A DNA stretch of 38,247 bases from a plasmid (NZ_CP077636.1), one strand, 5' to 3'; counted from the stretch's first letter, positions 1,361 to 36,065 are shown. The notes: generated by a model not told the origin, from the letters alone. Translations and numbers: made by a program.

Positions 1361-1524
1361 AGGGGGAAAATGTTTTGGGTTTGGTGCAAAATGAGTTTAA
1401 AAAAACATATAAAAAAAGTATAAATAACATATAAATAACATATAAAAAAGGTATATATTAAGTATAGATTAAGTATAAAAAAGGTATAATTATAATAACA
1501 AAAACAAAAGACAAAGGACAAAAA
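1361..1524 (+). promoter_or_regulatory. conserved promoter/operator/leader block, copy A (long form)
   Basis: aaagggggaaaatgttttgggtttggtgcaaaatgagtttaaaaaaa + (catataaa(t/a)aa)x2 + ggtatatattaagtatagattaagtataaaaaaggtataattataat + leader aacaaaaacaaaagacaaaggacaaaaaATG. TATAAT -10-like hexamers and 11-bp phased TAAGTATA repeats. Confidence 0.65.
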
Positions 1525-1869
1525 ATGAAAATCGAAGTAATTAAAAACAAGTTTTTTGATTTAGAAAGTGTTCTAAAGGGCGAGAGAAAAAATATTTATA
1601 ATAAAGACGCTTACGCTTTTTTAGAATGTAAAGATGATAAAGATAATATTGCTAGATTTTTTGATTTAGGCGAGATTGCACTAAATTATAATCAAGAAAA
1701 CAATCAAATTGAAGTTTATTTTCTTAAGTATGAGTTTTTTCAAGAGAGCTACGAAATTTTAAAATATCATATTGTAAATAGTATTAAGTTTGCTTTTGTG
1801 AGTGCTGAAGACACTTTTAAAAGATTATCCAACTTAAAAATTAATGTTAAAGATTTTATAAAAGAATAA
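1525..1869 (+). CDS. hypothetical protein
   Basis: 114-aa ORF immediately downstream of promoter block A. Confidence 0.55.
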   Translation: MKIEVIKNKFFDLESVLKGERKNIYNKDAYAFLECKDDKDNIARFFDLGEIALNYNQENNQIEVYFLKYEFFQESYEILKYHIVNSIKFAFVSAEDTFKRLSNLKINVKDFIKE

Positions 1870-1882
1870 GTGGGGGTGGATT

Positions 1883-2191
1883 ATGCAAAAAAATATAAAA
1901 GTTGATTTTAATAGTAAAATTATCGCATTAGAGATTGATTATAGCAAAGATTATGGTAATTTTTTTAAGAATATTGTTAATGAACTTTATTTAGAAAATA
2001 AAGACTATATTAAGCTTAAAGGTTACACAAGAAAAATAAATTTTCAATTTGGTGTTGATCAAGAAAAGCAAAAAAGATTTTTATTGCTTTCTTATGAGCA
2101 AATTGACAAAATAAAGAGTATTAATTTACTTATGTTATCTGAAGCTTACAGACTTATTAATTTTATTGCGGAAAAGATTTTAATTAAATAG
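1883..2191 (+). CDS. hypothetical protein
   Basis: 102-aa ORF, RBS 'gtgggggtggattATG', co-directional with neighbours. Confidence 0.5.
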   Translation: MQKNIKVDFNSKIIALEIDYSKDYGNFFKNIVNELYLENKDYIKLKGYTRKINFQFGVDQEKQKRFLLLSYEQIDKIKSINLLMLSEAYRLINFIAEKILIK

Positions 2192-2200
2192 GATAATAAT

Positions 2201-2422
2201 ATGAATAAAGTATTAGCAAAAAGACTAGCAAAAAAGGCTCGAGAAAAAGAGCTATTTTTGCTTTTTAAGGAATTTATGAGAGAAGTTGAAGAGTTAGAAT
2301 TTTTTGTTTTTAGAAAAATAAAAAATTCTAAAGAATTTAAAGAATACATCTTAAAATTAGAAGATAAAAAATCTCCGAAACTTTTTAGTGATGAAAGTCT
2401 AAAAGTAAGACTTATTTATTAA
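2201..2422 (+). CDS. hypothetical small protein
   Basis: 73-aa ORF, tightly spaced in operon. Confidence 0.4.
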   Translation: MNKVLAKRLAKKAREKELFLLFKEFMREVEELEFFVFRKIKNSKEFKEYILKLEDKKSPKLFSDESLKVRLIY

Positions 2423-2434
2423 AGGATAGCAAAT

Positions 2435-32820: not shown

Positions 32821-33316
32821 TTGCGGAAATTACATAATCCAATCAAATAGCCTATTTATAGCCATTAGAATAGATTTTTTTAGAAAAAAAATATTAATAA
32901 TTTAAGCTAATTTTTATATTTATAAAATACATTCTAAAACCTATTTTACCATTACCTTAAGCTTTTTATAAGTCGCAAAATGTCGGTATAATCGCAAAAT
33001 GTCGGTATAATAAATAAAACCTATTTTACCATTACCTTAAGCTTTTTATAAGTCGCAAAATGTCGGTATAATATTGATTTTTTAAGTTTATTTTTATTTT
33101 ATAAAATGTCTTTAAAGTCCTATAAAAACTATATTTAAGCTTTTATTAAGTCGCAAAATGTCGGTATAAGTCGCAAAATGTCGGTATAATATTAGCTTTT
33201 TATGCTTTTTTAAAATACATTATAAATCCTATTTTACCATTACCTTAAGCTTTTTATAAGTCGCAAAATGTCGGTATAATTTCCGCAAAATGTCGGTATA
33301 ATATTCGCCGAAAACC
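32821..33316. repeat. iteron array / oriV: one inverted iteron (32821-32840) plus seven direct copies of cGCAAAATGTCGGTATAAt (at about 32984, 33005, 33074, 33162, 33183, 33271, 33296), two tandem pairs
   Basis: read directly; GC-containing 19-bp unit in AT-rich background, upstream of repA. Confidence 0.8.
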
Positions 33317-33917
33317 CGTTTTTGTGCTATGTAGCGTGGGAGCTAAAAATTTAAAAATATTAAAAATTTAAAAGGGGGAAAGTGTTTTAAGTAATATTAA
33401 TTATTTATTATTGAAATTTTATTTTTAAGAAAAAATTTATTAAGTTAATTTTTTTTAAATGAAAAGTTAAAAATTCAATTTTAAGCTTAATTACTTTTTC
33501 AGTGTTTAAATTAATAATAGATATCAAAAAAAAAAAAAAAAAATAGTGAGAAGTTTTTTAAAAATATTTTTTATTTTTTAAGCTTTAGGTTTTTTCTTTA
33601 AAATATTGCCTTTAAAATCGTTAAAATCGATTTTTTATTTTTATCCTTTATCTTTTATCGTTTTTTATCGTTTTTTGATTTAAAGGCTATTTTTGTTAAT
33701 TTATAAGCCTATTTGATTTTTTTAAAAAAATATTCTTTTTTATCAAAGGAAAATATTATTTTTTTAGAAGCTTATTTTTCAATATTTGTTTTGTTTTTAT
33801 AGCCACTAAGTTATTTTTATTTTTCTTAAAATAGTGGCTGTTTTCTTAATTTAAGTTTAAATGCTTGATTTTTATAATTGTCTATATTTATTTTAATTAT
33901 TTTAAAGGATCATAACA
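33317..33917. other. AT-rich non-coding region downstream of iterons (probable DNA unwinding element of oriV) with A18 tract (33526-33543) and short direct repeats (tatcgtttttta x2, ttaaaatcg x2)
   Basis: read directly; no ORF of 60 aa or more. Confidence 0.5.
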
Positions 33918-35033
33918 ATGGAAGAAACTAGAGAAGAAACTCCAAAAACTATTTTGTCAGAATGGCAAGAACAATTTCAAAATAAAGAAACAGAAATTGA
34001 AAAAACTTTAGAAAAAGAAAAAAGCAGTGAAGAATTACAAAAAGAGTTAGAAGAACTTAATAAGCTTAATTTTCAAGAAGATTTAGAAAATCAAGAAGTT
34101 TTAAAAAGTCAATTAGAAAAACAGTTAAAGTTAGAAGATTTGCCACAAGAAGCAAAACAGACTTTAGAAATTTTAGAAGAGAAAGAAAAGCTTGATAATG
34201 ATATGCGTAATTTTATTGAGCTTACAACAGAGTATGAAACTCCAAATGAAAAAAGAGCTTTTATTGAAAACAATCTTAAAGAAGTTAGAGAAACTCCAGA
34301 AATCAATGAAAGTTTGTCTATTTTGAAAGAACAAGATGAATTACAGAAAGAAATTGACAATACTAAAGAAGAAATGGCAAGAGAAGAAAAAGAATTGAAA
34401 GATCAATTAGAAAATGCAAATAAAGAAAAAAAAGGTTTAAGTCAAGAAGAATATGATGAAAAGTTTGCAGAAATGGAAAAAGAGCACGCTAAAAAACTTA
34501 AAGAAATGGAAGAAAAAATGGAAAAGTTAGAGCAGAACTTTGAAAATTCCATAGAAAATCTTCTTAACTCAACAAGTCTTAGTGCGATTTTAAAATCATT
34601 GTATGAAATGGATAAAAGTTTGCATTTGATTTTAAAAGAAAAAGAGAATAATTTTGATGAACTTAATCGTCAAAGAGAAGAAAAATTAAATTTAGCAATG
34701 CAAACAGAAAAAACTAGAGAAGTTGTAATAGATTTTATTAAAGAACTTCATCAAAAAACCAAAGGCGTTGAAAATGGAATTAATGAGATGAATAAAGAAC
34801 GCAATTTTTATTATGAGCTTGATAAACTTACAAAAAATCCTGAAAAAATGGATTTAAAAGAAACTCAAAAATTGCAAGAATATATTAATTATATTGATAA
34901 AGAAACTCCAAATTTCAAGGAAAATTATCCTAAAAAATATAAACAAACCAAAAAAATTATTGAAAATAATATTAAAAAAACAATGGATAAGGCTAAAGTT
35001 AAAACAGCAAATAGCCAAGGAATGTCATTATGA
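33918..35033 (+). CDS. highly acidic E/K-rich coiled-coil protein
   Basis: 371 aa, about 40% E+K, heptad-like periodicity; RBS 'ttaaaggatcataacaATG'. Confidence 0.5.
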   Translation: MEETREETPKTILSEWQEQFQNKETEIEKTLEKEKSSEELQKELEELNKLNFQEDLENQEVLKSQLEKQLKLEDLPQEAKQTLEILEEKEKLDNDMRNFIELTTEYETPNEKRAFIENNLKEVRETPEINESLSILKEQDELQKEIDNTKEEMAREEKELKDQLENANKEKKGLSQEEYDEKFAEMEKEHAKKLKEMEEKMEKLEQNFENSIENLLNSTSLSAILKSLYEMDKSLHLILKEKENNFDELNRQREEKLNLAMQTEKTREVVIDFIKELHQKTKGVENGINEMNKERNFYYELDKLTKNPEKMDLKETQKLQEYINYIDKETPNFKENYPKKYKQTKKIIENNIKKTMDKAKVKTANSQGMSL

Positions 35034-35986
35034 AAAAAAATAAAATATTTTTTCTTTTCTTTTTTGCAAGTTCATTATTTTCAGCAGGTATTCCTGTAAT
35101 CGACGCCGCCAGCATAGCACAAGCAGTTACCAGTTATCAACAGATGCTAAAACAATATGAACAAATGATTAAAGACACTACAAATTTTGAAAAGCAAATG
35201 AAAGAATTAGGGGTAGATATGTCTTCAATTAGTGAAATTTTAGGAGATACAAAATCATTAATCAATCAAACTCAAAGCTTATATGATGGTATTAAAGCTG
35301 TGCCAGATGATTTTTATGGAGAGATTGAAGATATTACTAAAGCTTGCAATTTTATGGAAAAACAAAGCACCTTTTTTCAAACTAAAATTCAAAATGTAGG
35401 CACGAAATACACAGATAAAGTCAATACTTGCATTTCTGCTATAAGTGATACCACAGAAGTTGATAAATCAATTAATCAACTCAATCAAAAGCTTTTAACT
35501 ATAAGTAAAGATGATACTAAAACTTACAATGAAACTTTAGTTCAAATTCAAAATTTAGAAAATGCTAAACAATATTTAGCGTCTAAGGCAAATCAAGATC
35601 GTGTAAATAAAATGTTAGCATTTTATGATAATTATCAAAAAAACGAAAGCACTAATCCTTATACAAAAGCAAAAATGGATAAAGATTTGCAAGAGTTATC
35701 AAAACAATTGCTTAAAGCTAATAATCAAAAACAAGCTCAAGCATTAACAAATTCAATTCTAATTAAAATTTTAGAAATGACGCAAAGACAATATGAGTTA
35801 AATATATATTTTTCTCAAGCGATGACAAGTTTAGGTTTAAATGGAAATGGTGGGCAAATGAATAAAAGTCCAAGTTTTGAATTGACTTATCAAGAACCAC
35901 AAGACCCTAAGGAATATAATCCTTATTTAAAGGATATTAAGCAACAACCAAAAGATGAAAACGGTTTTCCTGTTTTTACTTTTTAA
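35030..35986 (+). CDS. VirB5/TrbJ-like secreted T4SS minor pilin/adhesin
   Basis: signal peptide then 'AGIPVIDAASIAQAVTSYQQMLKQYEQM' (TrbJ/VirB5 N-terminal signature GIPV.D.a), helical; ATGA overlap with upstream gene. Confidence 0.5.
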   Translation: MKKNKIFFLFFFASSLFSAGIPVIDAASIAQAVTSYQQMLKQYEQMIKDTTNFEKQMKELGVDMSSISEILGDTKSLINQTQSLYDGIKAVPDDFYGEIEDITKACNFMEKQSTFFQTKIQNVGTKYTDKVNTCISAISDTTEVDKSINQLNQKLLTISKDDTKTYNETLVQIQNLENAKQYLASKANQDRVNKMLAFYDNYQKNESTNPYTKAKMDKDLQELSKQLLKANNQKQAQALTNSILIKILEMTQRQYELNIYFSQAMTSLGLNGNGGQMNKSPSFELTYQEPQDPKEYNPYLKDIKQQPKDENGFPVFTF

Positions 35987-35994
35987 AAATTAAC

Positions 35995-36065
35995 ATACAA
36001 AAAAGGTATAAAAAAGGTATATATTAAGTATATAATAAGTATAAAAAAGGTATAATTTTACAAAA
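35995..36065 (+). promoter_or_regulatory. promoter/operator block copy G
   Basis: catacaaaaaaggtataaaaaaggtatatattaagtatataataagtataaaaaaggtataatttta. Confidence 0.55.

Follow-up and report, generated by a model that had tools for sequence, protein, structure and literature searches.

KorB of the IncP plasmid RK2 is a partition protein that doubles as a repressor of many plasmid operons; it is a helix-turn-helix (HTH) protein of the ParB family and recognizes a 13-bp palindrome at 12 sites, often distant from promoters. It served as the model in a preliminary description of the DNA studied here, a 38,247-nucleotide (nt) stretch of the plasmid NZ_CP077636.1 (hereafter the window, meaning this stretch at its full length), where seven dispersed copies of one promoter block were proposed to be operators of a single plasmid protein, possibly the partner of ParA. 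The likeness is in the logic only. KorB fits poorly, since the ParA partner has no ParB or HTH domain and is predicted to adopt a ribbon-helix-helix (RHH) fold, and the sites, which overlie the promoter itself, are repeated directly instead of forming palindromes.

The best analogue is the omega protein (ParB) of the Streptococcus pyogenes plasmid pSM19035, an RHH partner of a small ParA whose sites, contiguous arrays of short repeats over the promoters of copS, delta and omega, act both as centromeres and as operators (PMC9499535). As in that system, the same repeat array recurs at several functionally different promoters, seven in the window and 6–8 in related plasmids. However, omega is a homodimer of 71 amino acids (aa) that acts at three kinds of promoters and reads 7-bp heptads (WATCACW) regardless of their orientation, whereas the ParA partner of the window has 209 aa and is predicted to be a single-chain tandem RHH protein, and the units are 11 bp long, all direct, have a TATA core, include the –10 element, and occur at seven promoters, those of transfer and accessory genes among them. 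No sequence similarity between omega and the ParA partner is detectable.

In its modeled architecture the partner is closest to TraY. According to the relaxosome paper, a TraY monomer holds the entire fold of an RHH dimer, and three TraY molecules form a train on approximately 30 bp of DNA, about 10 bp each, two of them as direct repeats. The gene for TraY of F belongs to the tra operon, and the protein works at oriT and at the promoter of its own gene, while the partner gene follows parA and abuts repE beside the replication origin; moreover, a tail at the N-terminus and helices at the C-terminus are additional in the partner, and Pfam TraY is absent among the matches of 12 members of its family at E ≤ 1.

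pVir is a virulence-associated conjugative plasmid of Campylobacter jejuni, and almost nothing is known about the control of its genes. The window is a conjugative plasmid of the C. jejuni pVir group: it is 97% identical to the C. jejuni plasmid p13784 across most of the 38.2 kb, and about 30 further Campylobacter conjugative plasmids match it (MOBP relaxase, MPF_T, Rep3 replicon). A plasmid typing paper places these plasmids, including one from C. novaezeelandiae, in the pVir group. The + strand carries nearly all genes, which encode a VirB/ComB type IV secretion system (T4SS), relaxase, TopA, Ssb, ParA, a Rep3 initiator, and many small open reading frames (ORFs) without recognized domains. 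For comparison we distinguished three lineages: lineage 1 (the window, p13784, pVir of strain 81-176, and pVir of strain IA3902, L016), lineage 2 (C. novaezeelandiae pCNZW441b2, a second C. novaezeelandiae contig, and one C. jejuni contig), and lineage 3 (two contigs with pVir-like gene order). A scan of genome contigs returned one further plasmid only, the second C. novaezeelandiae plasmid.

Arrays of 11-bp Units at Seven Promoters

All seven block copies are found where the preliminary description had placed them, on the + strand, and their recurrence is far beyond chance. The two-unit core TAAGTATANNTTAAGTATAA has 20 matches at three or fewer mismatches, compared to 0.57 expected, and the exact unit TAAGTATA has 18, compared to 3.09 expected, with 15 of these 18 inside blocks; the motif CATATAAAWAA has 12 matches (0.78 expected), all twelve inside blocks. 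When arrays are delimited by anchoring each block on its –10 hexamer, every block is a gap-free run of 6–8 units of the form nnTATAnnnnA, and the spacing, formerly given as about 11 bp, is exactly 11 bp. The suggested overlap of units with –10-like hexamers holds for seven blocks out of seven, with TATAAT within the last unit. A typical array consists of CATATAAAAAA twice, [AG]GTATA[TG]ATTA twice, AGTATAAAAAA, and GGTATAATTAT. The pair of catataaaaaa units said to precede the core is present in six blocks, while B7 has CATACAAAAAA GGTATAAAAAA in its place.

The blocks head unrelated operons, as proposed: four small-protein operons, a lipoprotein gene, parA–parB, and trbM. B1 (1406–1493) has eight units, the last being GGTATAATTAT, a predicted transcription start site (TSS) at 1497 and a leader of 28 nt before the gene 1525–1869 (114 aa). 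B2 (4829–4894) and B3 (6079–6144) have six units each; the former has a TSS predicted at 4898 and a 28-nt leader before the gene 4926–5288 (120 aa), the latter, a TSS at 6148 and its own 27-nt leader before the gene 6175–6567 (130 aa, lipoprotein-like). B4 (23533–23609), of seven units with TGTATAATTAT as the –10 unit, has a predicted TSS at 23613 and a 28-nt leader, and is followed by the genes 23641–24006 (121 aa) and ssb (24022–24483). B5 (30103–30168) has six units, two tandem TATAAT boxes, a TSS predicted at 30172, and a 25-nt leader before a 34-codon ORF (30197–30301).

The parA copy, B6 (30458–30523), starts with CATATAAAAAA CATATAAATAA, that is, with two CATATAAA units, followed by four AAGTATA 11-mers, of which three contain a perfect TATAAT; the three to four tandem 11-mers reported previously are thus four. 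Its TSS, predicted at 30516 from the middle TATAAT, falls within the array. B7 (35994–36059) has six units, a TSS predicted at 36063, and a 16-nt leader before trbM (36079–36864) and the genes downstream.

A G-rich upstream segment AAGGGGGAAAATGTTTTGGGTTTGGTGCAAAATGAGTTTAAAAAAA (AAGGGGGAAAATGTTTTGGGTTTGGTGCAAAATGAG...) stands on the + strand ahead of only the three “long” blocks, B1 (1361–1405), B2 (4781–4828), and B4 (approximately 23487–23532). It has lineage-specific counterparts in L002 and L007, and runs of G5–G9 are seen in lineage 3; its core GCAAAATG is similar to the iteron core. A BLAST search of PLSDB with the bare array returned no match, probably because of low-complexity masking, and a full-text literature search for the block motif found nothing.

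Transcription Starts and Promoter Anatomy

Transcription starts of pVir from strain 81-176 were mapped by differential RNA sequencing (dRNA-seq; Dugar et al., 2013; PMC3656092, Table S5). Seven of them (11323, 16269, 16611, 25676, 29076, 30011, and 31257), belonging to pVir0013, pVir0035, pVir0044, pVir0046, pVir0048, parA, and an “orphan” upstream of parA, have a block as their –50 to +1 region, with the start 7 nt past GGTATAAT and 5′ untranslated regions (UTRs) of 27–31 nt; these are near-identical blocks of a relative, not of this exact plasmid. B1 has the identical –50 to +1 region with the start mapped at 25676 (pVir0035, UTR of 28 nt). The orthologous starts are 30011 for B2 (pVir0046, 28 nt), 31257 for B3 (pVir0048, 27 nt, step height 455), 11323 for B4 (pVir0013, 28 nt), 16269 for B5 (the “orphan”), and 16611 for B6 (parA, 31 nt), where the middle (penultimate) of the tandem TATAAT boxes is used. 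The leaders computed for the window, 28, 28, 27, 28, 25, and 30 nt for B1–B6, agree with the published lengths. As these starts sit at the 3′ edges of seven blocks, the blocks are real promoters, and the expectation that transcription would start at them is borne out.

The “orphan” start was listed as the small RNA (sRNA) candidate CJpv1, for which Northern blots gave no signal (PMC3656092). CJpv1 is probably the mRNA of the 34-codon protein METINKLIFFEKFFKEKGFKIIKISENKFFIKNF encoded on the + strand downstream of B5, whose ORF is conserved directly upstream of parA in four lineages (L004, L007, L012 homologues).

The sigma-70 consensus published for C. jejuni (Woesten 1998; Petersen 2003; Dugar 2013) comprises a –35 element TTTAAGTnTT, a T-rich –16 region, TATAAT, and a 10–11 bp periodic upstream signal reported for approximately 89% of C. 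jejuni promoters. The blocks share with it TATAAT, the TTTAAGTnTT-type –35, and periodic A/T. The TAAGTATA unit at the –35 position fits the consensus at the correct spacing, as TTAAGTAT (TTAAGTATAG, TTAAGT) starts 27 nt before TATAAT, compared to 28 nt in the consensus construct of PMC3824568, and this position reads TTAAGT or TTAAAT in all three lineages; because of this fit in sequence and spacing, we identify the unit two turns upstream as the –35 element. On the contrary, the T-rich –16 region (TTTTTTTG) is not seen, the block spacer ATAAAAAAGG being A-rich and having only the G at –14 in common with the consensus. The block further differs from the consensus in that its register is exact, not statistical, its 6–8 units are near-identical, and its sequence is specific for the plasmid lineage.

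Hence, the “operator architecture” noted earlier is in part ordinary promoter anatomy, namely, the –35 and –10 units. The consensus leaves unexplained the identical AGTATA unit within the –35/–10 spacer, A-rich where the consensus is T-rich, and the exact 11-bp register that runs 40–60 bp further upstream of –35. The possibility that the blocks are simply the generic promoter type of the plasmid is ruled out, as the rep, T4SS, and relaxase promoters use an unrelated 18-mer of the iteron family. Scans for E. coli-type promoters and terminators gave counts near the shuffle level, and the blocks lack TTGACA.

The proteins encoded downstream of B1, B2, B4, and an extra pVir copy are mutually unrelated and the homology ends at ATG; therefore, the first genes after the blocks are not paralogues that arose by whole-gene duplication but share a cassette. 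Taken with the mapped starts, this shows the seven blocks to be copies of a plasmid-specific sigma-70 promoter cassette.

Conservation and Concerted Evolution

The block is conserved in related plasmids, with positions kept at orthologous promoters of the three lineages (those of the ssb operon, trbM, small-ORF operons, the 34-codon ORF, and parA). At 6–8 of these promoters, a 41-nt block consensus peculiar to the lineage is found, with 0–5 mismatches among copies of one lineage, while lineages 1 and 2 differ at 9 positions out of 41. Thus, copies in one plasmid are closer to each other than to the orthologous copies of other plasmids. The parA copy, which has no flanks in common with the others, also changes per lineage; it is the most divergent copy in every lineage (7–9 mismatches out of 41), with the same unit core and register as other copies. 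The block type tracks the plasmid lineage and not the host species, since a C. jejuni plasmid (L004) has the C. novaezeelandiae-type block. This pattern is one of concerted evolution, and fits co-evolution with a plasmid-encoded factor.

Co-regulation in Published RNA-seq Data

Data on expression come from IA3902, whose pVir belongs to lineage 1, and contrast 24 h in the gallbladder of sheep with the inoculum from culture (Kreuder et al., 2017; PMC5447181, Table S2). The normalized counts increase from 6 to 55 for pVir0013 (B4 type, 9.2-fold), from 1 to 47 for pVir0034 (B1 type, 47-fold), from 8 to 124 for pVir0042 (the extra pVir copy, 15.5-fold), and from 5 to 112 for pVir0044 (B2 type, 22.4-fold). 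For the B6-driven genes, the increase is from 33 to 135 (parA, 4.1-fold) and from 19 to 103 (the ParA partner, 5.4-fold). At the same time, genes without blocks decrease, virB2, virB3, virB9, and virB10 by 5–7.5-fold, pVir0008 and pVir0009 (ArdC) by 10.6–11.7-fold. As block genes go up while T4SS and ArdC genes go down, a change in plasmid copy number cannot account for the pattern. The data speak for a co-regulated set with almost no expression in culture, even though its promoters are close to the consensus. Support for the proposed co-regulation of unrelated operons comes from the block-driven genes that rise together 4- to 47-fold, but not from those of B3 and B7.

In bile and gallbladder, IA3902 has block-driven genes, parAB, and repE up, and T4SS genes and ArdC down, and regulation appears to be opposite for the two classes of promoters on the plasmid.

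ParA and Its Partner

The parA gene (30546–31214, + strand) encodes 222 aa from ATG, with Pfam matches to AAA_31 (5e-21), CbiA, MipZ, and VirC1. The product is a small Walker-type ATPase without an N-terminal DNA-binding domain, AAA_31, CbiA, and MipZ spanning its whole length. The gene that follows on the same strand, 31224–31853, encodes the ParA partner (homologue of pVir0026), a candidate array binder. Its prediction comprises a disordered Lys-rich N-terminal tail and two beta-alpha-alpha motifs, with a strand at residues 49–56 and helices at 58–70 and 75–84 in one, and a strand at 136–143 and helices at 144–156 and 161–175 in the other. The tandem-RHH model is a confident one, with TraY as the top match; in this model two RHH motifs of one polypeptide form one RHH fold, as is characteristic of the TraY family. 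We therefore predict, with good confidence, that the partner is a DNA-binding RHH protein, specifically a single-chain tandem RHH.

Sequence comparisons give less. Six of the 12 family members have a sub-threshold Pfam match to NikA-like (RHH), and neither Omega_Repress nor any other Pfam family matches the partner significantly. Searches of PDB sequences with the whole family and with each motif yielded nothing significant: the top match, RomX (E 0.0023), covers a helix only, and two RHH proteins appear at E 0.3–0.7. In hhalign, motif 1 and motif 2 show no relationship to each other. The family has only approximately 15 representatives, and a model by AlphaFold2 (AF2) from a shallow alignment of five sequences was discarded, its mean confidence (pLDDT) being 44.5.

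The partner is among the fastest-diverging backbone proteins. Its identity to the lineage 2 and lineage 3 counterparts is 67% and 39%, respectively, compared to 90% and 61% for ParA, and 86% and 60% for RepE; its first predicted beta strand reads TISFEVYL, KFPYKIFL, and KFRYQFFC in the three lineages.

The locus has features of type Ib ParABS systems: a small ParA, a downstream partner modeled as RHH, and repeats overlapping the parA promoter. Near parAB, there are no repeat arrays other than B5 and B6, and B6 is a candidate par centromere and operator. Among other small ORFs of the window, Pfam finds no DNA-binding domain except MobC; RepE (279 aa) has Rep3_N. A 56-aa ORF at 18882–19052, “CopG” in one GenBank record, was considered and set aside as an unlikely DNA binder, because its product is acidic.

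By analogy, the approximately 10-bp footprint of a TraY-like protein matches the 11-bp unit, and a single-chain RHH, being asymmetric, would be suited to direct repeats. Given its modeled fold, its position, and its divergence pattern, the ParA partner is a plausible binder of all seven arrays.

Shared Leader and sRNA CJpv2

A second shared element was overlooked in the preliminary description: a leader common to four blocks, and an sRNA antisense to it. A CA-rich leader AACAAAAACAAAAGACAAAGG(A/C)... with a Shine-Dalgarno sequence is found on the + strand at 1497–1524, 4898–4925, and 23613–23640, with a shorter variant at 30172–30196. This 25–28 nt leader is common to B1, B2, B4, and B5, and extends to the ATG.

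The sRNA CJpv2 (1094–1262, + strand) has a 5′ stem-loop and a 3′ part with terminator-like hairpins. Its start is mapped at pVir 25268 with a step height of 2740, and it is Northern-verified (PMC3656092); in IA3902, its length is 168 nt. The z-score of the fold is –4.3, the long 5′ stem closing a 22-nt apical loop UCCUUUGUCUUUUGUUUUUUGU. In reverse complement, this loop corresponds to the shared leader ACAAAAACAAAAGACAAAGGA along with its ribosome-binding site, and 19–22 bases are paired between the loop and the leaders. The predicted duplexes have energies of –21.9 to –25.7 kcal/mol for B1, B2, B4, and B5, compared to –6.4 to –8.7 kcal/mol for B3, B6, and B7.

In lineages 2 and 3, a syntenic promoter and stem-loop are present, the loop being antisense to the distinct leader of its own lineage. 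Across the three lineages, cognate sRNA–leader duplexes have –16 to –27 kcal/mol, and non-cognate ones mostly –9 to –17 kcal/mol, with the exception of the lineage 1 sRNA and the closely related lineage 2 leaders (–20 to –22 kcal/mol). The closing stem is kept across lineages, with one compensatory pair. On the minus strand, the CJpv2 segment reads as a B5-type leader and so looks like a remnant of an inverted cassette.

No targets of CJpv2 have been published; one paper lists it as cis-antisense to pVir0033, and no Rfam family matches within the window. What is new here is that the CJpv2 loop is antisense in sequence to the leader of four block mRNAs, and this antisense relation is the most novel and the most easily tested part of our findings. 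Like trans-acting base-pairing sRNAs and plasmid antisense RNAs that recognize their targets through exposed loops, CJpv2 is abundant and structured, and in its apical loop it is complementary over approximately 20 nt to the 5′ leader and ribosome-binding site of its putative targets. It differs from them in being encoded apart from its four or five unrelated putative targets, which carry one duplicated leader, and in having an antisense segment that resembles an inverted leader remnant.

The 3′ part of CJpv2 (1176–1256) is one of two copies of an 81-nt two-hairpin element (TTAAGCCAAAAGTCTTAA, GCGGGGACACCCCGC); the other, 91% identical, is at 20053–20133 in the T4SS region, directly upstream of an 89-codon gene at 20151. 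The element is also conserved in L002 and L004.

Proposed Mechanism and Alternative Explanations

A plasmid-wide regulon is a reasonable idea that now has some indirect backing from experiment, and we favor, with moderate confidence, the explanation that the block-driven units are co-regulated, the likely controllers being the ParA partner and, for four units, CJpv2. In the cassette, the last 11-bp unit serves as –10 and the unit two turns upstream as –35, transcription starting 7 nt after –10. The phased direct repeats would most likely be read by the ParA partner as a TraY-like single-chain RHH monomer. Since such a monomer is intrinsically asymmetric, it could align head-to-tail, one per 11-bp unit, in a train that would cover –35, spacer, and –10 and keep RNA polymerase out; at parA, the train would also form the partition complex, like omega on pSM19035. 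The leaders of B1, B2, B4, and B5 may pair over approximately 20 bp, including the ribosome-binding site, with the loop of the abundant CJpv2, adding a post-transcriptional off-switch. Expression of the block genes would be held down in culture and rise in the host, the reverse of the behavior of the T4SS genes.

A bolder version, which we put forward only tentatively, is a two-layer “establishment/maintenance” regulon built from one portable promoter–leader cassette, where a head-to-tail polymer of the single-chain RHH protein makes each of the seven arrays both centromere and operator, an sRNA derived from an inverted leader copy silences the four leader-sharing mRNAs, both codes co-evolve and define the lineages, and the set is on in the host with conjugation genes off.

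For most block-driven genes no function is known. Should the explanation hold, it would define a regulon of the parA–partner operon and four small-protein genes, the latter induced 9- to 47-fold in the gallbladder, with two concrete candidate regulators, pVir0026 and CJpv2. For a Northern-verified plasmid sRNA of Campylobacter, targets would thereby be put forward for the first time. Centromere-binding proteins would gain a new type, in which a single-chain RHH acts together with ParA, and there would be a clear case of a promoter–leader cassette recruited ahead of unrelated genes. Should the arrays act as centromeres, they become candidates for incompatibility determinants separating pVir lineages.

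Several observations weigh against this explanation. The array is also a near-ideal Campylobacter promoter, in a genus where 10–11 bp periodicity is generic, and the –35 match weakens the case that same-face tandem units imply operators. No start is listed for the B7 (trbM) copy in the published pVir 81-176 TSS table, and the genes of B3 (lipoprotein) and B7 are absent from the induced-gene lists of PMC5447181. The strongest co-induction is confined to leader-sharing genes, so the leader, and not the array, may be the regulatory element; moreover, the old IA3902 locus tags were mapped by gene order, with ssb, parA, repE, and the toxin gene as anchors. The partner structure is a prediction from 12 sequences, the five-sequence alignment having given the low pLDDT mentioned above, and in L014, a distant relative with a partner 26% identical, no obvious dispersed block is seen in 10.8 kb. 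As for CJpv2, the duplex energy for B1 is only about two standard deviations beyond mononucleotide shuffles of the leader, a modest score due to the leader being A-rich and the sRNA U-rich, and in IA3902 CJpv2 increases 2.6-fold while its putative targets rise. Further, identical polymorphisms appear in different copies of different plasmids, hence gene conversion is clearly at work as well and can keep the copies alike, and the lineage pattern alone is no proof of a trans-acting factor; gene conversion alone could give the concerted lineage-specific pattern, and conversion of the inverted leader copy within CJpv2 could likewise produce the lineage-matched sRNA–leader complementarity.

A serious rival, possible in our opinion although somewhat unlikely, makes do with the promoter cassette and no dedicated repressor. 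The block would then be an idealized sigma-70 promoter (TTAAGTAT, –10, and phased A/T turns that bend DNA or are UP-like), spread by recombination and made uniform by gene conversion, and co-regulation would come from the shared leader, via CJpv2 or RNA stability, or from host physiology. This agrees well with the fit to the published consensus and spacing, with the periodic signal in about 89% of C. jejuni promoters, with the polymorphisms common to different copies in different plasmids, and with strong induction in leader-sharing genes only, B3 and B7 genes not being induced. It agrees less well with the strict register 40–60 bp upstream of –35 and the AGTATA core invariant in an A-rich spacer, and with the parA copy changing in step in each lineage without common flanks; basal mRNA counts of 1–8 are very low for near-consensus promoters, and the predicted RHH partner of ParA needs a site, the arrays being the only repeats near parAB. 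If, instead, the arrays were operators of some other factor, be it a host nucleoid-associated or AT-tract protein or a small plasmid protein, with the partner binding the parA array or elsewhere only, one would readily understand why the parA copy is the most divergent in each lineage (7–9 mismatches out of 41); and as most small ORFs have no recognizable domain, a hidden regulator is conceivable. We consider this improbable, though, given that the block type goes with plasmid lineage and not with host species (L004), that Pfam offers no further candidate DNA-binding domain among small ORFs of the window, and that the parA copy departs from the others neither in unit core nor in register.

The VirC1 match of ParA and the TraY-like model of its partner bring to mind a transfer accessory module of the VirC1/VirC2 or TraY kind, recruiting the relaxosome and unrelated to the blocks. 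But VirC1 is just one of several generic ParA-family matches, no TraY match is found in Pfam, the operon adjoins repE and the iteron origin, with both the relaxase and the presumed oriT region lying far off, and a MobC-type accessory gene already stands beside virD4, all of which leaves this reading very improbable.

Other Repeats and Small Genes

The 18-mer CGCAAAATGTCGGTATAA has twelve perfect copies in the window. Eight of them, at 32808–33301, form the iteron cluster beside repE, while single copies at 6609–6626 (–), 6774–6791 (+), 8974–8991 (–), and 9172–9189 (+) flank the relaxase gene and lie on the T4SS (virB2) promoter. The pVir starts 34278, 18900, and 19329 are directly downstream of 18-mer copies. 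Given 18-mers at T4SS and relaxase starts, the Rep initiator may also control transfer genes, which would give the plasmid another regulon besides that of the TATA-array blocks.

The 3′ end of repE (31870–32709, minus strand) contains a G11 homopolymer at 31904–31914, which reads C11 on the coding strand. In Campylobacter, homopolymers this long are hypermutable, and the C-terminus of Rep could therefore be phase-variable.

Recent internal duplications, up to 99% identical, are observed at 26667–26885/28753–28971, 25466–25521/27888–27943, and 26041–26171/27634–27764. They lie in the region of accessory small ORFs downstream of ssb, YopX-family genes included, which is the most variable one among pVir plasmids. 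Within ORF 26840–27469, a 15-bp unit AGAAATAGAAAGACG is repeated four times in tandem (27061–27119), producing a five-residue protein repeat.

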